64,000 bases of DNA from an uncultured Erysipelotrichaceae bacterium. Its GTDB lineage: Bacteria; Bacillota_I; Bacilli_A; RFN20; DUOF01. Positions 6,727 to 38,853 of this stretch are shown here, piece by piece. A program made the translations under genes and the position numbers. The stretch is taken from positions 14,320 to 78,319 of the forward strand of contig CAYTZW010000001.1 in the NCBI GenBank assembly GCA_964442785.1. Direction: 5' to 3'. How positions within the stretch are numbered: the first letter of the stretch is position 1; each line of letters starts with the position of its first letter. The notes beneath the pieces are model-generated. The model worked only from the letters and a program-made list of their open reading frames with translations. It was not told the origin of the DNA and did not search any database.

Positions 6727-8664
6727 TTATTTTTCTTCGTTTGTTTCTTTATTTTCTTCTTTTTTAGCTTTTCTTGTTTTATTAACTTTAGGCATTTTTC
6801 CTTCTTCAACAATAGCTTTTATTTCTTCTCTTGTCAAAGTTTCTTTTTCAAGCAAAGCTTCTGCAATAAGAATTAATGTATCCTTATTTTCCTCGATTGT
6901 TTTTCTAGCTTTTTCATAACAAGTATCAATAATATCTCTTACTTCTTTATCAATTTCATAAGCAACTTGTCCTGAGAAATTTTTAGAAGTGTTCGCATAA
7001 TCTCTACCTAAGAAAACACTACCATTGTTTGTTTCATATTGAACAGGTCCTAATTTAGACATTCCAAGTTCTGTTACCATAATTCTAGCAATTCTAGTAG
7101 CGGCTTGAATATCTGATTGAGCTCCTGTAGTAACATCTTTAAAGAATATTTCTTCAGAAACTCTACCTGCTAGATAACTAGTTATTTGAGCTAATAATTG
7201 GCTCTTAGTTTGTAAAGTTTGGTCATCTTCTGGAGTCATAAGAACATAACCACCAGCATCTCCACGAGGAATAATAGTAACTTTTTGAACGACATTGGCA
7301 TCTTTAATCTTCATTCCAATTAAAGCGTGTCCTGATTCGTGATAAGCCACTAATTTCTTTTCTTTTTCCGTAACAATTCTACTCTTTTTAGCAGGTCCAC
7401 TCATTACTCTATCAATAGCTTCATCTAAATCTTCCATATCAATTTCACTTTTATTTGACCTAACTGCTAAAATAGCAGCTTCATTTAAAACATTTTCAAG
7501 TTCTGCTCCACTAAATCCTGGAGTTCTTCTAGCAAGATTTTCTAAGTTTACATCACTTGCTAACTTTTTATTTCTAGCGTGTACTTTTAAGATTGCTTCC
7601 CTTCCTTTTCTATCTGGTAAAGGAATTGTAATTTGTCTATCAAACCTTCCAGCTCTTAAAAGTGCAGGGTCTAAAACATCAGGTCTATTAGTAGCCGCAA
7701 TAACTAAAATTCCACTATTTTCTTCAAATCCGTCCATTTCAACAAGAAGTTGATTTAATGTTTGTTCTCTTTCATCGTGTCCACCACCAAATCCAGCACC
7801 TCTTTGACGACCAACAGCATCTATTTCATCAATAAAAATAATACAAGGTGCTGTTGCTTTAGCTCTAGCAAACATATCTCTTACTCTACTTGCTCCAACT
7901 CCAACGAACATTTCAACAAAATCAGAACCTGAAATAGAATAGAAAGGAACACCAGCTTCTCCTGCTATAGCCTTAGCAAGCAATGTTTTTCCTGTTCCTG
8001 GAGGTCCTTTTAAAATAGCACCCTTTGGAATTCTTGCACCCATAGCACCAAATTTCTTTGGTCTTTTCAAATATTCTACAAGTTCTTCCATTTCTTCTTT
8101 TTCTTCATCACAGCCAGCAACATCACTAAATCTAACTTTAGGAGCCTCTTCAAGTCTTGCTTTACTCTTTCCAAAATCAAAAGATGACTTATTAGAATTA
8201 TCTCTACCAACACTAGAACTAACCTTAGACAACATAAATATTCCTGCTAAAATAAGTAAAAGTGTAGGTGCTACAAATATTAAAATATTCAACCAAACAT
8301 CATTCTTGTTGGGGTCAATTACTTCTTCTGATAATCCAGAAATAGCATCAATCGCAGCATTAAGTCTTTCTTCACGTTCTTCACTAACACTATAAGAAAC
8401 AGAATAAGAATATTCTTTTCCATTAATGATAACTTTTCCATAAATCTTTTCACTAACACCTTCAACAATAGGTTTTCTCTTTAAAGACTTAAATTCAATA
8501 GTATCATCAGCAGGATCACTTTCTAATGCTTGAATTAATTCATTAATTGTATAATCCTTTTTATTGTCGCTTTTACCATTAGAATATAGTAAGCCAACTA
8601 CAAATAAAATAATTAAAATCCACGGTAATAAAAAACCAAAAGTATTTCTTTTTTTCTCTTGCAC
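6727..8664 (-). CDS. ftsH: ATP-dependent zinc metalloprotease FtsH
   Basis: Two N-terminal TM segments, AAA module [18 protein letters not shown] with DEIDAVGR, and the HEXXH motif HESGHAL. Confidence 0.95.
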
Positions 8665-8666
8665 AC

Positions 8667-9935
8667 TTATCCCTCCTTATTTACTTTTTCATAGATATAA
8701 ATTTCACAATCAAAATTTTCTCTACTCTTTGAATAATTATAATGCTTTGTCAATCCGCATACAAGTAAAATTAATCCTTGAGCATTAATTACAACAGGCC
8801 ATTTTTTTCTTTTAGACACTCCTATTTTATTATCTATAAAAACACGACTTATTTTTTTCTTTCCATTTTCTAGTTCAATATAATCATCTTCAAAATAAGG
8901 TCTTATAGTCAAAGGAAAATCTTCTTTTTTCAATTTCAACTGATGTTTTCCATCTCCAACTTTATAGACACTAAAATATTTACAATCAAATTCTCTTGGT
9001 CTATTTATCGTGTACAAATAATAATCAGGACTATCATTCTCTTGGATAGAGATTTTTTCATATTCCTTAACTAAACTTCTTTCTTTATCTAAAGGAATAA
9101 TTAAATTTGACTTATTTCCTTTTACTTGTTTTATTATATCTTTTATTGCCCTGATGCTAAAATTCTTCTTATTAATTAATTTAAAAAGGACACATTCTAT
9201 TATATCGTCATTTTCTTTAAACAATTCAAAAGAAATATTATTTTCACAAATATATTTATCATAAGCTTGGTCAACTACAACAAACTTTTCTTTTAATTTT
9301 TCATTTTCTATTTCAATTTTTTTCTTCAAGTCATACTTTTCTTCATTAGACATTTTATCTAAAATATGATGCCTTATTCTATTTCTTAAAAAATCATCAG
9401 TTAAATTAGAACAATCTATACTATAATAAATTTTATTTTCCATACAATACTCTAATAAATCATTTTTCAAAACATTTAAACAAGGTCTAATAACTCGCAT
9501 TTCATTAATATAACTTTCTTGTGCGATACCATAACATCTAGTATTTGTTCTTCTTTCTTTTTGAATGTAATAAGTTTCCAAATAATCATCTAAATTATGG
9601 GCAACATATAAAGCCTTAGCATTGTATTTTATATATAACTCTTTAAAAAAATCATATCGATAATTTCTTGCCCAATCTTGAAAGTTTCCAACTGCTTTTT
9701 CTCTAACAGTTTTAGTTTCAAAAATAAGGTTATTCTTTTGACAATATAGTCTTACATTTTCTTGTTCATTATCACTTTCTTCTCTTTTTTTATAGTTAAC
9801 TAAAGCAACAATAATTTGATATTTTTCATTTTTAAAAAAATCCAACATAGCCATAGAATCAGGTCCACCTGAAACCGCTAAAATAACATACGATTTTTCA
9901 TTAAAATTAGGACGAAAAACATTCATTAAGACCAC
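8667..9935 (-). CDS. tilS: tRNA(Ile)-lysidine synthetase
   Basis: PP-loop [10 protein letters not shown] at the N-terminus; position immediately upstream of ftsH as in Bacillota. No hpt lies between them. Confidence 0.8.
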
Positions 9936-9972
9936 CCAAAAGAATTATAACATAATTATTCTTTTTTTTCAT

Positions 9973-10036
9973 TAAACTTCACTAAAATTATACTAAAATC
10001 ATCTTTAATTTTTCTTCTAGCTCTAAGAGAAATTTT
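9973..10036. repeat. direct repeat A (attL-like): orphan copy of the last 21 codons of the spoIIE-like gene
   Basis: 64 bp with 63/64 identity to 12296-12359. It encodes KISLRARRKIKDDFSIILVKF followed by NEKKE-stop, out of any gene context. Confidence 0.8.
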
Positions 10037-10039
10037 CAC

Positions 10040-10168
10040 CCTCCTTTTAATTAGTCAAACGTGTCTGGCTAATTTGTATTTTAGATATTAATTCCTTTAT
10101 AAAATTATCATATCTTTACCACATAACTATTAAGACTACTTTTAATAATTTTAGGACATTAAAAAACT
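10040..10168 (-). repeat. direct repeat B1 (promoter/5'-leader-like element, about 85% identical to B2)
   Basis: CCTCCTTTTAATTAGTCAAACGTGTCTGGCTAATTTG...GGACATTAAAAAACT matches 12026-12136 with one 17-bp indel. It abuts repeat A directly. Confidence 0.7.
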
Positions 10169-10204
10169 AAAGCGTCCACAATGCTCTAGTTTTATTACAA
10201 TAAA

Positions 10205-10606
10205 TCAATCTTTTCCTGTTACTACAATTTCATGTTTTAACAATAAATCTTTAAATTTTTTTTCCTCTATTTCACAATTATCTAATAAATCATAAATATC
10301 TATGTACCATCCAATATAATGAACCTCATCAAATGACAATTCATCTTGAGGTAACGTTGAGTCTATTAATGCAACTTCATATTTACACTCAAATAAATTC
10401 TTACCTACAATTTTAGAAAATTTTCTTTTTAATTTTGCATTTTCCATAGGATATCTACACAGGTGGTATTTTTTACCATTATAAGTAAAATCCATTCCCC
10501 AGCTAACTTCAAATTCATCATTATATTCACATGAATACTCTCTTATAAAATCATTTATATCATCATACACATCTGGTGCTCCATATGTTCCATCTTTTAT
10601 TCCCAT
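10205..10606 (-). CDS. hypothetical protein (islet cargo)
   Basis: 133-aa ORF (MGIKDGTYGAPDVYDDINDF...). An RBS GGAGG and a likely promoter lie upstream; no family recognised. Confidence 0.4.
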   Translation of the reverse strand: MGIKDGTYGAPDVYDDINDFIREYSCEYNDEFEVSWGMDFTYNGKKYHLCRYPMENAKLKRKFSKIVGKNLFECKYEVALIDSTLPQDELSFDEVHYIGWYIDIYDLLDNCEIEEKKFKDLLLKHEIVVTGKD

Positions 10607-11009
10607 GTTATACTATACCTCCTTGAAATTTTTTTGATTAATTTCCAATCATTATCAGTAGGAATGCCCGAAAGCAGTTTGTGTTCTTTATCATAATGTA
10701 CATAAGGTTTCTTTTTCTCATGCATATGACTAAAATCAATAACGCGAACTAAATTATGCTCTTCATCCATTCTTTTTTTCTAAAATCTAAATCTTTTTTC
10801 AACATCACTAAAATATGAGGTTCTATATCTATCAATTCAACTAATATTCTTAATGTTGAATTTTTTGTAAAGATTTTTCCCTTATAAAAGCACGCAATTA
10901 TTAACTTTTATGATTACACAGTAGTTCTTATTTTATCAAATGTCAAATATATTATGAAAAATTTTTAGCTTTACCATTCTTCTAAATAGTTCATCAATTA
11001 AAATATTAT
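10607..11009 (-). pseudogene. decayed ORF remnants (frameshifted fragments)
   Basis: Two overlapping minus-strand fragments, ...RILVELIDIEPHILVMLKKDLDFRKKEW and MDEEHNLVRVIDFSHMHEKKKPYVHYDKEHKLLSGIPTDNDWKLIKK, are joined across an A8 tract. There is no start codon for the first and no intact ORF over 60 codons. Confidence 0.3.
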
Positions 11010-12017
11010 TTATTGTTTTTTTATTACCTTTTCAACTTCGTTTATTAATTGTTCTTTATCAGGAATGTAATAAGTATAAGTTGATGCAAATATATTATTA
11101 GATAAACCTCCCAATGCATATTCTAATAATACTTTATCCTTGTCAGCACATAGTATTATTCCTATGGGTTTACCATCATCTTCGCTATTTACATCTTTTT
11201 CGTAATAATTTAAGTACATATTCATTTGACCTAAATTTTCTGCTTTTAGCCCATTCATTTTTAGATCTATTAAAACATAAGACTTTAAAAATTTATTATA
11301 AAAAACCATATCAACATAGTAATCTATATTATTTAAAGTAATTCTTTGTTGACTACCTACAAACATAAATCCTTTGCCTAGTTCAAGTAAAAAATCTTCT
11401 ATATGTCTTATCAATTTGTATTCTAAATCTTTTTCAAATATCGGTTTTTGCTCTTTTATACCTAAAAATTCAAATACGTATGGTTGTTTAACTATATCAC
11501 TTGGTTTTGAAATAATTTGCCCTTTTTTAGATAATTCTAAAATTTTTTCTTTGTTTGCACTATTTCCAGATAATAAAAGCCTTTCAAACAATGATGTATC
11601 TAATTGCCTTTTTAGTTCTCTAACACTCCATTTTTCATTAATGCACTCATTCTCATAAAAGTTTCTTTTATCTTTATCACTAATTACCATAAGTTCTATA
11701 TAGTGTGACCAAGTTAATTGTCTATTCAATTTTTCTAATTCAGGATATGCTTTATAAAAAACTCTCATATATTTTAAATTAGAAGTAGAATAACCTTTAC
11801 CTAAATGTTTTGTCAATTCATTAGACAATTTTTTTAAAATTTCTCCACCATATTCAAGTCTATTGTTATATTCATTTTCATTTAAAACAATAATTTTTCC
11901 AATATTCCAATACACATAAACAATAGATTGATTAATTTCTTGGGCTAAATTTGTTTTTACTTTATCTACTAAATTCTTTATTTCACTCAACATTTTATTG
12001 TTGACTTCATTTTGCAT
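11010..12017 (-). CDS. YhcG-family PD-(D/E)XK nuclease (DUF1016)
   Basis: 335 aa with the typical YhcG N-terminal helical domain and a C-terminal core D(MVFY)...IDLK. A strong RBS AGGAGG lies 8 nt before the ATG. Confidence 0.7.
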   Translation of the reverse strand: MQNEVNNKMLSEIKNLVDKVKTNLAQEINQSIVYVYWNIGKIIVLNENEYNNRLEYGGEILKKLSNELTKHLGKGYSTSNLKYMRVFYKAYPELEKLNRQLTWSHYIELMVISDKDKRNFYENECINEKWSVRELKRQLDTSLFERLLLSGNSANKEKILELSKKGQIISKPSDIVKQPYVFEFLGIKEQKPIFEKDLEYKLIRHIEDFLLELGKGFMFVGSQQRITLNNIDYYVDMVFYNKFLKSYVLIDLKMNGLKAENLGQMNMYLNYYEKDVNSEDDGKPIGIILCADKDKVLLEYALGGLSNNIFASTYTYYIPDKEQLINEVEKVIKKQ

Positions 12018-12025
12018 TTTTTTAT

Positions 12026-12136
12026 CCTCCTTTTAATTGGTCAAACGCGTCTGGCTAATTCGTATTTTGGAATATTAATACCTTTACTACATAATTATTA
12101 AGACTATTTTTAATAATTTAAGGACATAAAAAAACT
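12026..12136 (-). repeat. direct repeat B2 (promoter/5' leader of the YhcG-like gene)
   Basis: Second copy of the B element, ending in AAAAGGAGG-N8-ATG of the YhcG-like gene. Confidence 0.7.
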
Positions 12137-12242
12137 ATAATAAGGCTTTCTACAAAATCTACATTCTTATTAATACCTACTACTTACTTTTTACAAAATT
12201 GTCTTCGTTGGTACCGAGTATAACATAGAAGGTTTATTTTGT

Positions 12243-13331
12243 CTATTTTAAAAAATTATTTATATAATTTGTATTTACAATATTTTTCATCGGCATAAAC
12301 TTCACTAAAATTATACTAAAATCATCTTTAATTTTTCTTCTGGCTCTAAGAGAAATTTTTTCAACCCATTTTACTAAATCATCTTCGTTTTTTCTTTCAC
12401 TCAATTCTTCTTCAAAATTTGGATAAGATAACATAACTCCGTCAGAGCATAAAATCAAAACATCTTCTGCTAAAACCTTTTCTTTAACAAAAGAAGATTT
12501 TTCATCTTCTATTCCCATTGGTAAATTATAAGAAGAAATTTTTTTGACTTTGTTATTTCGCCATAGATAACTATTTTCTGCTCCTTTTTTATAAAAATGT
12601 AATTGGTCTTTTTCAATATCTATTACATCTAAACTTGCGAAAGCATTTTCATCATCAATTATCATCTCATTAGCGATATCAATAGAGCTTTTTAAATTAT
12701 ATCCTTTTTGTAATAATTGCTTTATTTTAAAAATAATACCTTTGCTAATATTTAAAGCATTTTCCCCTTGTCCTATTCCGTCAGATAACAATAAATATTG
12801 ATGATTGTCAGTTTCATAAGTATCAAAATAATCGCCATTTACTTTTTTATCCGCACTTAACTGAATTGAAACAACCTCTAAAAAATAACTTTTTTTATCT
12901 TTAAATAACAAACAATAATTATCGTAAAGCCAATCAAAAATCATTACAAAAGAAACCGCAAAAAAAGTATATGAAAATAACAGTAAAAGATTATTTTCTT
13001 CTAATAAAAAAAGCACAAAACAAACAAAAAAGGTACTTATTAATAAAGCATAATACTCATTTTTTATTATCATTTCTATCAAATAATTAACTAGCAAATA
13101 AAAACAAAAGCATAATGAAAGCAATAAAATATTCAACCAATTTGTGAATAAGCAAAAAAAGTAAATAATTGATGTATTTATCACTAAGGTACTTGTTTCT
13201 TTTCTTGTTCCAATGATAAACAAAGGAACCATTAAAAGCCATTGCTTATAAAAAAGCAAACAATAGACAAAAGAAAAAAGTATCAAACTTACATTTAATA
13301 CTTTACTACTATCTTTATTAGTTTTTTCCAT
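12243..13331 (-). CDS. spoIIE: SpoIIE-like membrane-anchored PP2C phosphatase (short form)
   Basis: N-terminal multi-TM region followed by a PP2C domain (GDYFD...LLLSDGIGQG...LILCSDGV). It sits at the position of spoIIE in the conserved divIC-spoIIE-tilS-ftsH order. Confidence 0.6.
   Translation of the reverse strand: MEKTNKDSSKVLNVSLILFSFVYCLLFYKQWLLMVPLFIIGTRKETSTLVINTSIIYFFCLFTNWLNILLLSLCFCFYLLVNYLIEMIIKNEYYALLISTFFVCFVLFLLEENNLLLLFSYTFFAVSFVMIFDWLYDNYCLLFKDKKSYFLEVVSIQLSADKKVNGDYFDTYETDNHQYLLLSDGIGQGENALNISKGIIFKIKQLLQKGYNLKSSIDIANEMIIDDENAFASLDVIDIEKDQLHFYKKGAENSYLWRNNKVKKISSYNLPMGIEDEKSSFVKEKVLAEDVLILCSDGVMLSYPNFEEELSERKNEDDLVKWVEKISLRARRKIKDDFSIILVKFMPMKNIVNTNYINNFLK
12296..12359. repeat. 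direct repeat A' (attR-like), inside the 3' end of the spoIIE-like CDS
   Basis: 63/64 identical to 9973-10036. It encodes KISLRARRKIKDDFSIILVKF, followed here by MPMKNIVNTNYINNFLK-stop. Confidence 0.8.
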
Positions 13332-30269: not shown

Positions 30270-31625
30270 ATGTTATCAAAACTAAATAATATTTGGGACG
30301 AGGTTCTTTCTAAGCTAAAAGTCCAAATAAATGATGCTAATATTTTTAACAATTTTCTATTATCTACTAAATTAGTAAATTTAGAAGGAGATACCGCTAC
30401 AATAAGTGTACCTTCCAAATTTACAAGGGAACTTATCGTTTTTAAATATTTAGATTTAATACAAAATTGTTTATGTGAAGTTACTGAAACAAACTTCAAA
30501 TGTGTAATCAAAGAAGAAAAAGAAATAAATGTTCCTGTAAGAGGAAATTTTACCAGCGATGAAGCTTTAAATAATACTAATTTAAATACTAAATATACTT
30601 TCGACAACTTTGTTGTCGGTACTTGTAATAGAGAATGTCATTCAGCTGCTTTAACAGTAGCTATTGAACCAGGTAATTTCTATAATCCACTTTTTATATA
30701 TGGAAAATCTGGAATTGGAAAAACCCATTTATTACACGCTATTGGGAATTATGCTAGATTAAAACAACCTAGAACTTTTAGAATTTTATATACTTCTTCT
30801 CAAGATTTTATGGACGACTTGTTCAAATCATTTAGAGAAGAAAGAGGAGCAGAAATCTTAAAAGAGAAAATTAAATCTATAGATTTACTTCTTATCGATG
30901 ATATTCAATTCTTCTCTGGAAAAGATAAAATGGGAGAAATATTTTTCCAATTATTTAACAATTTAATCAATTCAAGAAAACAAATCGTTATCACAAGTGA
31001 TAGACCACCTCATGAGCTAAAAGGATTAGAAGATAGATTAGTCAGCAGATTTGCTTCTGGACTAAGTGTTGGTATTGAAAACCCTGAATTTGATACATCT
31101 TTAAAAATCTTACACAAAAAAATAGAATCTTTAAATTTAACAACCGAAAAAATTGATGAAGATGTCTTAAATCATATTGCTTTGAAATATTCAAGCGATA
31201 TTAGACAACTTGAAGGAGCTCTTAATAGATTAATCTATTACGCTATCAATTTTAAACAACAAGAACATATAGATATGGATTTAGCTTTAGAGGCTTTTAA
31301 AGGTTTAGCACCTTCTGTTAGTAAAAAGAATGAATCCGTTTCTGTTGAAAGAATTAAAAATGCTGTCGCAGATTATTACAACTTATCCACAACTCAGTTG
31401 ATATCTAAAGTAAGAACTAACAATATTGCTACTGCAAGACACGTTGCAATGTATCTATGTCGAAGTATTTTAGACATTCCTTTTATTCAAATCGGAGTAG
31501 AATTTGGAGGAAGGGACCACTCGACTGTTATTAATGCGTGTGAAAAAATCGAAGAATTGTTGAAAACTGATGAGCAATATAAGAAAGCAATAGATGAGTT
31601 AAAATTCATCTTAAAAAGTAAATAA
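30270..31625 (+). CDS. dnaA: chromosomal replication initiator DnaA
   Basis: AAA+ signature GKSGIGKTHLLHAIGN and C-terminal DNA-binding domain ...ATARHVAMYLCR...GGRDHSTV. Confidence 0.97.
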   Translation: MLSKLNNIWDEVLSKLKVQINDANIFNNFLLSTKLVNLEGDTATISVPSKFTRELIVFKYLDLIQNCLCEVTETNFKCVIKEEKEINVPVRGNFTSDEALNNTNLNTKYTFDNFVVGTCNRECHSAALTVAIEPGNFYNPLFIYGKSGIGKTHLLHAIGNYARLKQPRTFRILYTSSQDFMDDLFKSFREERGAEILKEKIKSIDLLLIDDIQFFSGKDKMGEIFFQLFNNLINSRKQIVITSDRPPHELKGLEDRLVSRFASGLSVGIENPEFDTSLKILHKKIESLNLTTEKIDEDVLNHIALKYSSDIRQLEGALNRLIYYAINFKQQEHIDMDLALEAFKGLAPSVSKKNESVSVERIKNAVADYYNLSTTQLISKVRTNNIATARHVAMYLCRSILDIPFIQIGVEFGGRDHSTVINACEKIEELLKTDEQYKKAIDELKFILKSK

Positions 31626-31745
31626 AATATAGAAAATTTGATTTATTTATAGAGCAATTTGTGGTAGAATATTAGTGTTGAAAAAGGAGTTATCAACTTT
31701 TCCACAGCCCTTATTGTTATTATTAATTATCTTAGGAGGAATAAT
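31626..31745. promoter_or_regulatory. dnaA-dnaN intergenic DnaA-box/AT-rich unwinding region
   Basis: TTTTCCACA at 31698-31706 plus further degenerate boxes and AT-rich tracts. Bipartite origins are typical of Bacillota. Confidence 0.5.
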
Positions 31746-32867
31746 ATGAGATTTATAATTTCAAGAGTTCATTTGATGAATGCTTTAAACATCGTTTCCA
31801 AAGCCGTATCTAACAAAAGTCCTTTACCTATTTTAAATGGAATTAAATTTGAGTTATCAAACGACCAATTAGTTTTATTAGGTAGTGATACCGATATATC
31901 TATAAAAACAATTATTCCTGTTACTGAAAAAGGTGAACAAATTATCAATGTTTTTGAAACTGGAGAAATTGTTTTATCTAGTAGATATATTACAGAAATA
32001 GTTAGAAAGATAGATAGTGAGAGAATTGAGTTAGAAATACTAGACGGAAATTTAGTAAAAATAAGCGACCAACATACAAACTTTAATATAAATGGAATTA
32101 AAGCTAAAGACTATCCACAAATAGATTTAAACCCAAATGGAACATTAATTTCTTTAAATGCTCAAACATTGAAAACAACTTTAAATCAAACTATATTTGC
32201 AACTTCTATTTCAGAAACCAGACCAATGTTAACAGGTGTTAATTTCAAAATGGACGGCAATATTTTAGAATGTGTAGCAACTGATACTTTTAGATTAGCT
32301 AAAAAAGTTATCAAAACTAATGAGTCAGGATTATTTAATGTAACTATTCCTGCTAAGAGTTTGTCTGAAATCTCAAAAATTATCGACAATGATGAAATTG
32401 TAAATATTTATTTTTCTGAGAAAAAAGTTTTATTCAAATTAGCTAAAACAACTATTTCAACAAGAATTATCAGTGGAGTTTATCCAGATACATCAAAATT
32501 AATACCTAGTAATCAAGATTATAGACTAGAAGTAATAACTAGCAATATTTTAGCTGCTGTTGATAGAGCGTCTTTATTATCTACCGATAGAAATAACATT
32601 GTTAAGTTAAATATGAGCCAAGAAAAAGTGGAAATATCATCTAATAGCCAAGAAATTGGTTCTGTTAATGAAAGATTAAATACTTTCCATTATGAAGGAG
32701 ATAAAATGAGTATTTCTTTCTCTGCTCAATATGTCCAAGATGCTATCAAAGCTATTGGAAGTGAAGATATTCAATTATTATTTGTAGGAGAAATGAAACC
32801 TTTTGTTATCAAGAACAAAGAAGATGATTCGATAACACAACTAGTAGTTCCAGTAAGAACTTATTAA
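31746..32867 (+). CDS. dnaN: DNA polymerase III beta sliding clamp
   Basis: 373-aa three-domain clamp (MRFIISR... LTGVNF...). Confidence 0.95.
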   Translation: MRFIISRVHLMNALNIVSKAVSNKSPLPILNGIKFELSNDQLVLLGSDTDISIKTIIPVTEKGEQIINVFETGEIVLSSRYITEIVRKIDSERIELEILDGNLVKISDQHTNFNINGIKAKDYPQIDLNPNGTLISLNAQTLKTTLNQTIFATSISETRPMLTGVNFKMDGNILECVATDTFRLAKKVIKTNESGLFNVTIPAKSLSEISKIIDNDEIVNIYFSEKKVLFKLAKTTISTRIISGVYPDTSKLIPSNQDYRLEVITSNILAAVDRASLLSTDRNNIVKLNMSQEKVEISSNSQEIGSVNERLNTFHYEGDKMSISFSAQYVQDAIKAIGSEDIQLLFVGEMKPFVIKNKEDDSITQLVVPVRTY

Positions 32868-32894
32868 AGAGCAAAAAAATGCTCTTTTTCTTTT
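32868..32894 (+). terminator. intrinsic terminator after dnaN
   Basis: AGAGC-A7T-GCTCT hairpin plus T-run. Confidence 0.6.
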
Positions 32895-33072
32895 GTTTTA
32901 AAAAAGTAAATCAAAAATGATAAAACTATAAGAAAATAATGATAAAATCGTGCTATAAGGCTAAAAATAGGTAAAAACAGATAAAGTGAAGAATATATTC
33001 TTTGCTTTTTTTTATGTTTATGATAAAATATTAATATAAATATTTATATTAATAAGTGGAAAAGGTGAAAAA

Positions 33073-33285
33073 ATGAAAAAAATTACAATCAACACAGAAT
33101 ACATAACCTTAGGACAATTACTAAAATATGCCAATGTTATTAGCAATGGTTCAGATGCTAAAATCTTTCTTGTCGAAAATAAAGTCTTTGTAAATGGAGA
33201 ACTAGAACAAAGAAGGGGTAGAAAAATTTATGACAATTATCAAATAAAAATTGATAAAGAAGAATTTTTGGTGAAAAGAGAATGA
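33073..33285 (+). CDS. yaaA: S4-like RNA-binding protein YaaA
   Basis: 70-aa S4-fold protein in the conserved dnaN-yaaA-recF position. Confidence 0.7.
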   Translation: MKKITINTEYITLGQLLKYANVISNGSDAKIFLVENKVFVNGELEQRRGRKIYDNYQIKIDKEEFLVKRE

Positions 33286-34385
33286 AACTTACTAAGATAA
33301 GATTAAGAGATTTTCGAAATTACCAAGATGTGAGTTTGAATTTTTCTAAAAGTAACGTCAATGTTTTATATGGTGATAACGCTCAAGGAAAAACAAATTT
33401 AGTCGAGGCAATTCATTATGCTTCACTTCTTTCTTCTTTTAGGACTAACAATGATTTAAGTTTGATAACTAAAGATAAAATGTTTTCTATTATGGAATAC
33501 GAATTTGAAAAAGAAGCCAAAAAAGTGAAAATAAAAATAATTCTAAGTAAAACAGGAAAGAAAATTTATGTTGATGAAATAGAAGAAAAAAAATTTCGAG
33601 ATTACATAGGAAAAATCAATGTTATTTCCTTCTGTAGTGATGATATAAGAAAATTTAAAGAATCCCCAAAAGAAAGAAGAAAATTCTTTGATGAAGAAAT
33701 AAGTAAATTTGATAAAAAATATTTACTACACTTATTAAAAATAAAAAAATATTTAAAACAAAGAAATGAAATACTAAAAAATGAAACGAAATATTTGAAT
33801 GAATATTTAGATATCATAGATTTAAAACTAGCCGAAGATAGTTGCTATATTTGTGAAATAAGAAAACGATTTGTTGCCAAGATTAATGAGAAAATAAGTG
33901 ATGTTTATAACCAAATAACAGGTCAAAATTCAATAATTAAAATTAAATATTCTAATTTGTTGAAAAATGAAGAAATAACAAAGGATAACATTCAAAAATT
34001 ATATAGTGAAAATAGGATAAAAGATATTGAAAAAAAACAAACAAATGTTGGAATACAAAAAGAAAATTATGAATGTTTAATTGATAATCAGATTTATTCA
34101 GAATATGCTTCACAAGGACAACAAAGATTAATTCTTTTAGCGTTAAAACTCACAATATTAAAAATTATTGAAGAAGAAAACAAAATAAAAACATTACTAA
34201 TATTAGATGATATATTTTCGGAACTAGATGAAGATAAGAAAAAGTTAGTTATGCAATATATCAAAGAAGAAAATCAAGTTTTTATAACAACCACTAATAA
34301 AAAAGAAATAGAAGAAAAAAAATATGATATTGATATTTCTTATTTTAATGTAAACAAAGGTATTGTAACAGAAAGGAATGAATAA
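33282..34385 (+). CDS. recF: DNA replication/repair protein RecF
   Basis: Walker A GDNAQGKTNLVEAI and C-terminal signature LILDDIFSELD. Confidence 0.9.
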   Translation: MKLTKIRLRDFRNYQDVSLNFSKSNVNVLYGDNAQGKTNLVEAIHYASLLSSFRTNNDLSLITKDKMFSIMEYEFEKEAKKVKIKIILSKTGKKIYVDEIEEKKFRDYIGKINVISFCSDDIRKFKESPKERRKFFDEEISKFDKKYLLHLLKIKKYLKQRNEILKNETKYLNEYLDIIDLKLAEDSCYICEIRKRFVAKINEKISDVYNQITGQNSIIKIKYSNLLKNEEITKDNIQKLYSENRIKDIEKKQTNVGIQKENYECLIDNQIYSEYASQGQQRLILLALKLTILKIIEEENKIKTLLILDDIFSELDEDKKKLVMQYIKEENQVFITTTNKKEIEEKKYDIDISYFNVNKGIVTERNE

Positions 34386-34388
34386 TAA

Positions 34389-36326
<1,938 letters not shown>

Positions 36327-36339
36327 GGAGGAATAGAAA

Positions 36340-38853
36340 ATGGCAACAAATAAAGATGATGAATTATTTATAAAACCACACGAAGAAGCAACTTTAGTTA
36401 ATATTTCTAATGAGGTTAGAAATTCCTTCTTAGCTTATGCAATGTCAGTTATCGTTGCAAGAGCACTTCCAGATGTAAGAGACGGATTAAAACCAGTACA
36501 TAGAAGAATATTATTTTCAATGAATGACCAAGGAATGCAATATGATAAGCCATACAAAAAATGTGCTCGTATTGTAGGAGATGTAATGGGAAAATATCAC
36601 CCTCACGGAGACTCTGCAATATACGATGCTTTAGTAAGATTAGCACAAGATTTTTCAAGTAGATATCCAATGGTAGACGGACATGGTAACTTTGGTAATA
36701 TTGACGGGGACGGAGCTGCCGCAATGCGTTATACAGAAGCAAGACTAACAAAAATTGCTTCAGAAATGGTAAAAGACATTAATAAAGATACTGTAGACTT
36801 TATGGATAACTATGACGGAGAAGAAAAAGAACCAACCGTTCTTCCTTCGAAAATACCTAACATTTTAGTTAATGGAAGTACAGGAATTGCAGTTGGAATG
36901 GCAACAAACATACCACCTCACAATTTAGGAGAAGTTATTGATGCTATATTAGCAATTATGGAAAATCCTGATATCACAGCAGTAGATATTATTAATAACT
37001 ATTTATATGGACCAGATTTTCCAACAGGAGCAATTATTTTAGGAAAATCAGGAATTAAGAAAGCTTATGAAACTGGAAATGGAAGTATTGTTCTACGTTC
37101 TAAAACTGAAATAGAAGAAATGGAACACGGCAAAAAAAGAATAATCGTAACTGAAATACCATATCAAGTTAACAAATCAGCATTAGTTGAAAAAATAGGA
37201 AATTTAGTAAGAGAAAAAGTAATTGAAGGAATAACTGCTTTAAGAGATGAATCAAGTAGAGAAGGAATAAGAATTGTTATTGAACTTAGAAAAGATATTG
37301 TTCCTGAAGTAATTTTAAATCAATTATTCAAATTAACTCAATTACAAATAAGTTATGGAATTAATACTTTAGCAATAGTAAATGGAGAACCAAAGATTTT
37401 ACCTCTTGTTGATTTAATAAAATTATATTTAGAATTCCAAGAAGAAGTATTTGTTAGAAGAACAAGATTTGATTTAAAAATATTAACTGATAGAAAACAT
37501 ATTTTAGAAGGATTAAAAATAGCAGTTGATAACATTGATGCTATTATTAATGTTATTAGAAACAGTAGAGAAGCTGATAATGGTCAAAAAGAATTACAAG
37601 AAACATTTGGATTATCAGAAAAACAAAGTAAAGCTATTTTGGAAATGAGACTTCAAAGATTATCAGGTATTCAAAGAGATAAAATTCACGAAGAATTAGC
37701 CCAAATAACAGAGCAAATAACAGAATTAGAAACAATACTAGCAGATCGTAATTTAATCTTAGAACACATCAAAAATGAACTATTAGAAATAAAAGAAAAA
37801 TATTCTGATCCACGTAGAACAGAAATATCTAATGAAAGTTATGATATAGATGATGAAGATTTAATACCAGAAGAAAAAATAACAATAACCTTAACGTCAA
37901 ATGGATATATTAAAAGAGTTAGTACCGATACTTACAAAACTCAAAATCGAGGCGGAAAAGGAATAAAAGGAATGACTACTAATGAAGAAGATGTTGTTGA
38001 TTTGCTACTTACAACAAAAACTCATACTGATATTTTATTCTTTACTAACGTTGGAAAAGTATATCGTTTAAGAGGACATCAAGTTCCAGAATATAGTAGA
38101 CAAGCAAAAGGAATACCTGCTATTAACTTACTAAATATGGATAAAAATGAAAAAGTAAGAGCAATGATAAGTTTAGATGAGTACAATGAAAATCAAAACT
38201 TAACCTTTATAACATTAGAAGGAATAGTTAAAAGAGTACCACTAGAAGAATTTGTTAGAATTAGACAAAGTGGAAAAATAGCGGTAACTTTAAAAGAAAA
38301 TGATGAATTGTTTGCAGTCAAGAAAACAAACGGAAATGAAGAAATATTAATTGCTTGTTCCACTGGAAAAGTAGTTAGATTTAATGAAAATGATATTAGA
38401 GTAATGGGTAGAACCGCTATGGGAGTAAAAGGTATAGAAACTGTAGGTGGTGTAGTAGTAGGTGCTGCTACATCAAGTGAAGGAGAATACTTATTATCTG
38501 TAACTGATAAAGGTTATGGAAAAATGTCAAAAATCACTGATTATCGTTTATCTTTAAGAGGTGGACGTGGAGTAAGAACGATAGAAACCACAGAGAAAAA
38601 TGGTAATTTAATAGGTACAAAAGCAGTAAAAGGTGATGAAGATTTAATGATAGTAACTAATAAAGGAATTATCATTAGAATATCATTAGATGATATGAAA
38701 GTATCTAGTAGAAGTACTCAAGGGGTACGATTAATTAAATTAAATGAAGACCAAAAAGTTGCTTCTATTGAAATAGTTGAAAAAGAAATAGAAGAAGAAA
38801 ACAACGAACAATTAGTTGAAGAAACAAATGTTCAAGAAACCACAGAAGAATAA
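36340..38853 (+). CDS. gyrA: DNA gyrase subunit A
   Basis: Active-site region [10 protein letters not shown], the QRDR region ([19 protein letters not shown]) and C-terminal beta-pinwheel repeats. Confidence 0.97.

Follow-up and report, generated by a model that had tools for sequence, protein, structure and literature searches.

A 2.3-kb islet at the 3' end of a spoIIE-like gene of an uncultured Erysipelotrichaceae bacterium: a probable eroded remnant of a small integrative element

The islet and the repeats that bound it

This report concerns a stretch of 64,000 nucleotides from an uncultured Erysipelotrichaceae bacterium, a gut Firmicute (assembly GCA_964442785.1, contig CAYTZW010000001.1, positions 14,320 to 78,319; hereafter the window) and, within it, an islet of about 2.3 kb that lies between a spoIIE-like gene and tilS. 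The genes of the locus are all read from the minus strand, in the order yabP, a yabQ-like gene, a divIC-like open reading frame (ORF) of 95 amino acids (aa), the spoIIE-like gene, the islet, tilS and ftsH. A first-pass annotation made from the letters alone had listed the spoIIE-like gene, a YhcG nuclease gene, a 133-aa ORF and tilS, and the ORFs together with Pfam searches agree with that list. The islet is of an ordinary type, a decayed integrative islet in a variable spot.

Read 5' to 3' on the minus strand, the spoIIE-like gene runs through 42 nt and a 22-nt core into a tail beginning MPM, after which come a promoter-like site, a repeat (B2), the YhcG gene, the wreck of a helix-turn-helix (HTH) regulator gene, the tail of a 131-aa gene, the 133-aa gene, a truncated terminator, a second copy of the repeat (B1), the same 42 nt and core once more, NEKKE with its stop codon, and tilS (Table 1).

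The 42 nt and the core make up a 64-nt direct repeat whose two copies, one in the gene (DR-R) and one an orphan (DR-L), are 63/64 identical, the single difference being A/G at 10019/12342; the repeat search pairs 9973-10053 with 12296-12376, and similarity falls off beyond the first 64 nt. Both copies encode KISLRARRKIKDDFSIILVKF on the minus strand, the in-gene copy being translated as ...EKISLRARRKIKDDFSIILVKF then MPMKNIVNTNYINNFLK and a stop, and the orphan copy as (RRV)KISLRARRKIKDDFSIILVKF then NEKKE and a stop. The repeat search and the translation thus bear out what had been read at first sight, namely two near-identical copies that encode the same peptide and continue into different tails.

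The 64 nt had also been taken for the attL/attR footprint of a site-specific integration, and here the insertion stands and the extent does not. In the closest relative (the L001 lineage; L numbers are our designations of loci) the 22-nt core TAGTATAATTTTAGTGAAGTTT alone is repeated, and these 22 nt are all that the five junction copies of the two lineages have in common. Searching the window with a tolerance of 3 mismatches returns two cores and no more, where shuffled sequence leads one to expect 0.01 occurrences. The other 42 nt of the orphan copy match the spoIIE-like gene of the window (one mismatch in 64) and not that of L001, and they adjoin the ribosome-binding site (RBS) of B1, a promoterless copy of the YhcG leader. 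Being lineage-specific and abutting this leader copy, the 42-nt extension is a secondary part of the repeat. A local duplication unrelated to insertion, named in the first pass as what would speak against an element, is accordingly found for these 42 nt, as a secondary rearrangement on top of a genuine insertion.

B1 and B2 are another direct-repeat pair, at 87-89% identity and with one indel of 18 nt. The RBS AAAAGGAGG closes B on the coding strand, and next to it comes immediately the ATG of YhcG in B2 and the orphan spoIIE fragment in B1. The upstream end of B1 meets the terminator of the 133-aa gene at a shared TAGTTTTTT, and its RBS meets spoIIE sequence within GGGTGAAAA, a string that can be assigned to either partner (the short identity shared at this junction is GAAAA / GGGT..GAAAA). 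The 3' half of B1 is closer to the leader of L001 than to B2. Given some 12% divergence from B2, and indels besides, B1 is an old, separately evolving leader copy, and it is probably the stump of a second tandem copy of the element, as in L001. The repeats DR-L and DR-R are 63/64 identical and B1 and B2 only about 88%, with indels, so that the 64-bp identity must be younger than the B duplication; it may have come from a local event in which the end of the resident gene was either duplicated or copied by conversion onto the tilS-side junction. No copy of B beyond these two was found in the window and its core pattern had 0 matches in genome, viral and metagenome contigs, and we therefore rejected the idea that B is a dispersed repeat. 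An Rfam search of 9500-12800 returned nothing at E<=1, and B is not a known RNA family.

The promoter-like site just inside the islet is conserved in L001 (at 11815-11843) and would, to judge from its position, transcribe the leader and YhcG. Downstream of YhcG lie about 400 bp that had been described as decayed ORF fragments; the decay is real, and the fragments can now be given origins. One is a CapH-like HTH gene, of which the promoter and leader survive with a coding sequence that lacks its start and middle; the other is the last 56 codons of a 131-aa gene, the 57-aa ORF at 10770..10597 being 84% identical to residues 76-131 of the 131-aa protein of L001. A third, degenerate copy of the core between YhcG and the HTH promoter was considered and rejected, as the local alignment was no better than those of shuffles; without such a relic, YhcG and the HTH operon are best taken as parts of one composite element.

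The islet had been called recombinase-less, and this holds: no ORF between the repeats encodes a recombinase, the insert of L001 has none either, and a phmmer comparison of the window ORFs of at least 90 aa with one tyrosine integrase (from L012) and with Hin, both weak probes, gave nothing below E 0.04.

Table 1. Features of the spoIIE-tilS locus in the window, matches of its segments to L001, and parts of the L001 insert
Feature	Position	Strand	Basis or remark
spoIIE-like gene, membrane PP2C phosphatase, 362 aa	13331..12243	minus	PF07228 at residues 175-345
DR-R, in-gene copy of 64-nt repeat	12296..12359	minus	repeat search and translation
22-nt core TAGTATAATTTTAGTGAAGTTT, spoIIE-side junction	12318..12297	minus	comparison with sister lineage
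Islet-derived end of spoIIE-like gene, last 17 codons and stop	12296..12243	minus	orthologue alignment
Promoter-like site TAGACA-17-TATACT with TG extension, just inside islet	12245..12217	minus	best-scoring minus-strand site
B2, YhcG 5' leader, with degenerate palindrome 12060..12035 and RBS AAAAGGAGG	12019..12137	minus	repeat search
YhcG/DUF1016 PD-(D/E)XK nuclease, 335 aa, full length	12017..11010	minus	PF17761 9.7e-43, PF06250 1e-54
Wreck of CapH-like HTH regulator gene	10762..10966	minus	blastn to L001
Remnant of 131-aa gene	10597..10770	minus	57-aa ORF, C-terminal 56 residues
133-aa gene, intact, last of DUF4417-131-133 module	10606..10205	minus	ORF; without Pfam match
B1, promoterless and gene-less YhcG-leader copy, palindrome 10074..10049	10033..10169	minus	repeat search, junctions read
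DR-L, orphan copy of spoIIE 3' end	9973..10036	minus	repeat search and translation
22-nt core, tilS-side junction inside DR-L	9995..9974	minus	comparison with sister lineage
Detached ancestral C-terminal tail NEKKE and stop	9973..9956	minus	empty-site orthologues end KF-NEK...
Promoter-like site ATGAAA-17-(TG)TATAAT upstream of tilS, overlapping detached NEKKE tail	9972..9944	minus	promoter scan
tilS, conserved downstream neighbour	9935..8667	minus	PF01171 at 1.1e-49
ftsH	8664..6727	minus	gene order
Match to L001 segment 3' of 133-aa gene: core, MRMKNII... tail, promoter and B	12011-12318		blastn, 84.5%
Match to L001 8715-8927 and 9104-9139: HTH promoter, leader, two HTH coding fragments	10762-10966		blastn, 67-89%
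Match to L001 end of 131-aa gene, 133-aa gene and terminator	10161-10767		blastn, 92%
L001 core copy, spoIIE-side	L001 8669		spoIIE (host) left, ATGCCGATG (element) right
L001 core copy, middle, 3 mismatches	L001 11739		element arm left, ATGCGGATG (element) right
L001 core copy, tilS-side	L001 12201		same element arm left, AATGAAAAA (NEKKE, host) right
L001 insert genes: HTH_3 protein, 118 aa; M78-type peptidase, 229 aa; DUF4417 protein, 237 aa; 131-aa; 133-aa

Empty sites and an occupied sister lineage

Relatives of the spoIIE-like protein are few (6 homologous clusters in 5.8 billion proteins), from which it follows that the lineage is very sparsely sampled; the nearest named orthologue is only 56% identical. 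Three relatives at 49-56% identity end KF-NEKREDL, KF-NEKIDLV and KF-NEKRDLM, and as the two loci recovered among them are without an islet, NEK... is to be taken as the ancestral tail. At one such site (L003/L004/L005, on the same contig as L019, 'Erysipelotrichaceae bacterium SIG223') the spoIIE-like gene is followed directly by tilS, the former ending at 7059 and the latter starting at 7084 in the coordinates of L003/L019. At a second (L101/L102) the two positions are 4050 and 4073. The gap at the empty sites is thus 22-24 nt, and the sequence recovered for two loci reads ...GATGATTTTAGTATAATTCTTRTWAAGTTT joined to AATGAAAAAA..., in the same nucleotide context (...AAGTTT followed by AATGAAAAA) as the tilS-side junction of the window. 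A scan for the spoIIE family among GTDB representatives gave one relevant genome, in which the site is empty. The proposal that something had inserted into the 3' end of the spoIIE-like gene and exchanged its C-terminal tail, together with the empty arrangement it predicted (KF-NEK... and then tilS), is therefore borne out in two more distant loci.

The closest relative of all is occupied. In the L001 lineage, represented by at least 7 contigs assembled independently from different runs (L001, L002, L006-L010), all of them with an insert, the spoIIE protein is 82% identical to that of the window and ends KF-MPMV and a stop. The spoIIE-tilS interval is 3.5 kb and its cargo is different, with a 133-aa protein that is 94% identical to that of the window. 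The junctions are the same in both lineages, AAGTTT being followed by ATGCCGATG on the spoIIE side and by AATGAAAAA on the tilS side, and an element-side junction sequence ATGCSGATG is common to both L001 units and to the window.

The L001 insert contains three cores in place of two, in the pattern B-O-P' / P-O-P' / P-O-B', which points to two tandem copies of the element. The arm to the left of its middle and tilS-side cores is about 66 nt long, begins right where homology to other 133-aa loci stops (after the T-run of the terminator) and, next to the tilS-side core, is element-specific and not spoIIE sequence. Within 8669-12222 of L001 (and likewise in L002) there is a duplication with a period of 462-464 nt that comprises the end of the 133-aa gene, the terminator, the arm and the core, at 86-92% identity. 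The second copy shares its tail, promoter and leader with the window (84.5% over 316 nt) and is made up of tail, promoter, B and RBS, which run directly into the final 60 nt or so of the 133-aa gene, the A-run of the RBS being joined to an A-run inside that gene; it would thus be a window-like element minus everything from YhcG through most of the 133-aa gene. The parts of the element are 84-92% identical between the window and L001, much as are the flanks (84% for spoIIE, 90% for tilS).

Proposed history of the islet and its rivals

The 22-bp repeat at both ends, the identical junctions in two lineages, the hybrid middle site of L001 and the clean empty sites argue for site-specific recombination. 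A single insertion is favoured because deletions from one unit are enough to yield both lineages, because the element and its flanks have diverged alike, and because base composition makes no step at the borders of the islet. The history that we think probable, while being some way from certain of it, is that the islet is what erosion has left of a small integrative element, which would have inserted once in the common ancestor of the window lineage and L001, and would then have gone through a tandem stage and a series of deletions. The element would have entered the last codons of the spoIIE-like gene by recombination within the 22-bp TAGTATAATTTTAGTGAAGTTT that now flanks the islet. Its order at that time would most likely have been junction, promoter, a leader of about 200 nt, YhcG, a regulatory pair of the CapH/CapP type, the DUF4417, 131-aa and 133-aa genes, terminator, arm and junction. 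It would then have been duplicated in tandem, and the losses that followed would have been deletions between points with a few identical bases in common. From the window they would have removed the regulators, the DUF4417 gene and most of the 131-aa gene, and would have reduced the second copy to part of the YhcG leader (B1); in L001 the first copy would have lost promoter, B and YhcG between ATGCCGATG and a downstream ..AATGGT.., which share a short ATGG. A later local event would have set 42 nt of the window-lineage spoIIE beside the tilS-side core and so made the 64-bp repeat. Still functional, by prediction, are the 133-aa gene, YhcG under a promoter of its own, and tilS and the spoIIE-like gene on either side. 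The one route left by which the islet could now be lost would be recombination of the RecA type at the 64-bp repeats, with exact restoration of the NEKKE gene. In short, the islet appears to be vertically inherited and eroding, with a defence-type cargo.

Several points weigh against this history. No version of the element with a recombinase turned up in any collection queried, so that the mechanism of integration is read from the repeat pattern alone; the leader core pattern, as said above, is without matches, and the junction pattern had 0 in viral contigs. With two occupied and two or three empty lineages, a site entered twice, by related elements, would also fit, and the tandem arrangement could stem from unequal crossing-over between the 22-bp repeats. 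The deletion or fusion of the second copy starts at the same A-run after the RBS in the window and in L001, which is odd for independent deletions, and the path to the 64-bp repeat would take at least two steps, with no unique reconstruction. The repeats, junctions, empty sites, homologies and domain assignments are observed, and the single insertion, the tandem stage, the order of the deletions, the use of the promoter and any defence role are argued from them. A search with the arm pattern for a trace of the parent element gave 2 matches, which blastn shows to be due to chance.

Among the other explanations, the one that fares best, improbable as we think it, is that the spoIIE-tilS interval is a hotspot whose content is swapped by homologous recombination in the flanks, the repeats being by-products of local duplication. 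This would agree with the failure to find a recombinase, with the different content of the sister lineages and with the occurrence of the same cargo modules at recombinase-less positions elsewhere (L011, L013, L014, L018), and the 42 extra nucleotides of the repeat were clearly duplicated locally from the resident gene. It does not, however, account for the same 22-nt sequence bounding the insert on both sides in two lineages, nor for the ATGCSGATG junction common to both L001 units and the window, and flank-mediated replacement does not predict a third, hybrid core between the two units of L001.

The first-pass annotation had left the choice between a decayed island and a satellite mobilised in trans, and of these the decay is upheld. 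The second, a live integrase-less satellite moved by a recombinase encoded elsewhere in the genome or on a helper phage or integrative and conjugative element (ICE) and using either the 22-bp core or the 64-bp repeat as att site, seems to us unlikely, a little more so than the hotspot. It is true that direct repeats flank the islet exactly, that empty sites exist, that L001 has a middle site of the P-O-P' type as after tandem integration, that the two lineages differ in cargo and that this cargo is widespread (YhcG more than 80% identical in hundreds of clusters, the 133-aa gene 74-94% identical in unrelated defence islands). Yet the junctions are the same in the two lineages, the element has diverged as much as its flanks, and internal deletions alone suffice to derive both lineages from one composite element; moreover the middle core of L001, with its 3 mismatches, is decaying, the arm beside the tilS-side core of the window has been replaced, so that arm-type binding sites are gone, core, leader and arm have no other copy in the window or in the collections searched, and the weak probes detected no recombinase in the 64 kb.

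That the assembler threaded a separate 2.3-kb circle or a distant element into an empty site is very improbable: a 64-nt repeat is indeed a branch point for k-mers below 64 (without spanning reads, the graph spoIIE, repeat, islet, repeat, tilS is the same as that of a circle beside an empty site), and the assembly looks like one made from a metagenome, as a single 80-kb NCBI contig is the only record of identical proteins, but the two repeat copies differ at one base, composition is uniform, the L001 proteins end KF-MPMV and so attest a real junction, and the integrated arrangement recurs in at least 7 independently assembled contigs of the sister lineage, where the repeat is just 22 nt.

Two other mechanisms were considered. 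A transposon or insertion sequence was rejected, there being no transposase domain and no inverted repeats that pair the ends, and a repeat of 22-64 nt being too long for a target-site duplication. Integrative mobile elements exploiting Xer recombination (IMEX), which use the host XerCD at dif, have in common with the islet the lack of a recombinase, a repeated site of about 22-28 bp and the possibility of tandem arrays; they differ in that the site is here origin-proximal rather than at the terminus and lies within coding sequence. The window covers the replication-origin region, as it contains dnaA (30270-31625), dnaN, gyrB and gyrA (30270-38853 in all), 18-26 kb from the islet, and with dnaA only about 18 kb away a Xer/dif mechanism is unlikely. 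By eye, just one arm of the site resembles the dif sequence of Bacillus subtilis.

The islet is closest to degenerate att-flanked islands and prophage remnants, with which it shares core-bearing flanking repeats, an empty site in relatives, a replaced end of the target gene, a defence-type cargo and tandem accretion followed by deletional decay. Unlike these it is just 2.3 kb long, shows neither a recombinase nor a recombinase pseudogene in either lineage and does not restore the original C-terminus of its target, and its 64-bp repeat is a secondary extension of a 22-bp core. It matters little in itself, being one more small defence-type islet, with a lineage-specific site in uncultured Erysipelotrichaceae-like bacteria, where a spoIIE-like gene ends. 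It does show a mode of erosion, in which tandem copies form first and short identical stretches then serve as the end points of deletions, and it offers natural material for asking whether YhcG/PDC-S02, a very widespread uncharacterised PD-(D/E)XK nuclease, is an autonomous anti-phage gene, what the role of a covarying stem-loop before such genes may be, and why a rare 133-aa gene survives without its DUF4417 and 131-aa partners.

The cargo, the YhcG leader and the target gene

The YhcG protein of the islet scores far above the gathering cut-offs of both its Pfam domains (DUF1016_N, 146 bits against 32.8; YhcG_C, 185 bits against 32.5), as the domain assignment proposed for it had suggested, and a D...IDLK pattern can be seen by eye in the YhcG_C region of its translation. 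Its earlier description as a member of a defence-type family is sustained by a match to the PADLOC candidate system PDC-S02 (PDLC04807, E 2.4e-127, residues 4-333); it also matches phrog_22762, and no solved structure matches it by sequence. More than 7900 homologues are found at E<1e-60, hundreds of them over 80% identical, against 56% for the next spoIIE orthologue. YhcG can be a solitary gene in a housekeeping context, as in L018, where its neighbours are a PGA_cap gene and relA, and the gene of the window, with both domains at full length, its match to the PDC-S02 models and its solitary position, conforms to the variable context reported for the family (PMC9881135, PMC4316617), close homologues differing from it in their leader, since in the window the leader hairpin has decayed and the putative promoter lies about 200 nt upstream. 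DUF1016 proteins are predicted nucleases, enriched beside restriction-modification (RM) and BREX genes and present on ICEs (PMC9881135, PMC4316617, PMC1189080); in the literature searched no tested function is reported for the DUF1016/YhcG family, and PDC-S02 is merely listed in surveys. YhcG with its own promoter may be regarded as a candidate single-gene anti-phage nuclease, predicted to be functional. Compared with plasmids (PLSDB) the islet matched distant YhcG genes only, and with phages (INPHARED) nothing.

The 133-aa protein belongs to a rare family (36 representative clusters). The profile search proposed for it was run and gave no family assignment, and its structure model is mediocre, without significant fold matches. 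The gene ends DUF4417-131-133 modules in L001, L011 and L014-L017, and stands alone, as a 133/137-aa gene, in two defence islands, L012 (9932-10427, near an integrase, an MmeI-like RM gene and T5orf172) and L013 (8580-8993, near SbcCD-like, PAPS-reductase/DUF4007 and BrxC genes). The upstream 131-aa gene is truncated at three different points in the window (10205-10770), L012 and L013, from which the 133-aa gene seems to be retained on its own, apart from its operon partners; this suggests that it is selected independently of them.

The full operon recurs in L001 (8814-11626), L014 (88-2900) and L011 (7161-10414), with a capH-like HTH gene, a capP-like M78 gene, DUF4417, the 131-aa gene and the 133/137-aa gene; in L011 a Y-family polymerase gene takes the place of the HTH/M78 regulators. 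In having an HTH protein and an M78-type peptidase ahead of DUF4417-131-133, L001 resembles the immune operons regulated by CapH/CapP (bioRxiv 10.1101/2022.04.27.489752). The window differs from these by a wrecked HTH gene and no peptidase, and even in L001 the matches are weak and generic (PADLOC capH at 4.4e-9 and capP at 1.2e-7, the HTH protein being also an HTH_3 and the peptidase ImmA-IrrE-like), with downstream genes that are not a described defence system. The DUF4417 protein of L001 matches phrog_940, 'nuclease'. PADLOC has no entry for this operon, which could be a defence or prophage module under DNA-damage control that has yet to be described; scanning viral sequences with the 133-aa and DUF4417 proteins brought no match. 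As for the idea that the cargo might be an addiction module, nothing speaks for it: neither the 133-aa nor the YhcG protein matches a toxin-antitoxin family in Pfam, PADLOC, PHROGs or NCBIfam, and the two genes, about 400 bp apart, come from different modules.

The most reusable by-product of this analysis is a covarying hairpin before YhcG genes. Palindrome and RBS, which make up the last 44 nt of B, form the leader native to YhcG. A perfect palindrome of 28 nt, GAATTGGTCAGACGCGTCTGACCAATTC, lies at 4957-4984 of L018, 14 nt before the ATG of YhcG, and about 30 of 80 metagenomic YhcG loci (among L021-L087) have a palindrome 12-18 nt before the ATG. The consensus is AATT-NNN-CAGAC-(0-5 nt)-GTCTG-NNN-AATT, with variable triplets that change symmetrically (GGT/ACC, CTT/AAG, TGG/CCA, TTG/CAA, GTG/CAC). 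In the alignment 91% of cells pair, against 24-48% with the partners slid, double changes are seen in 9 of 14 pairs, and 0 of 500 shuffles reach the observed scores. As G-U is commoner than A-C and the loop varies in length, an RNA stem-loop in the sense strand is favoured over an operator of fixed spacing; a co-evolving dimeric binding site may be an alternative. L018, L039 and L045 have a predicted folding energy of -17 to -19 kcal/mol (z about -5.6), against -2 (B2) and -4.8 (B1) kcal/mol for the decayed hairpins of the window. Searched in Rfam, a typical YhcG leader gave sub-threshold generic hairpin matches only, and the motif has no Rfam family.

The nucleotide homology of the window YhcG to some 15 unrelated contigs extends from 12059-12064, the 5' edge of the palindrome, to the stop codon. 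One may speculate, as a long shot, either that hairpin, RBS and YhcG ORF form a mobile cassette or that the islets at spoIIE ends are mini-elements of one family, mobilised in trans and having a 22-bp att site. Were the cassette real, the hairpin would serve in cis, either to mobilise the cassette or for the nuclease's self-recognition, and both the solitary spread of YhcG genes over 80% identical and the leader stumps (B1 and the B of L001) fused at the same base after the RBS would be accounted for.

As to the target gene, residues 142-345 of the spoIIE-like protein align with positions 543-763 of the 764 of the TIGR02865 spore_II_E model, at 94 bits, below the cut-off of 490.8. Both this alignment and the Pfam SpoIIE domain (175-345) stop at KF, so that the swapped tail lies outside the conserved phosphatase domain, and the replacement of NEKKE by read-through into the element is probably harmless for the phosphatase. 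On the other side the promoter-like site just 5' of tilS, which overlaps the detached NEKKE tail, implies that tilS has probably kept a promoter of its own with or without the islet. The SpoIIE of the window is a short form, made of an N-terminal hydrophobic region and the PP2C domain, and this short form occupies the canonical position, yabP-yabQ-divIC...tilS-ftsH.

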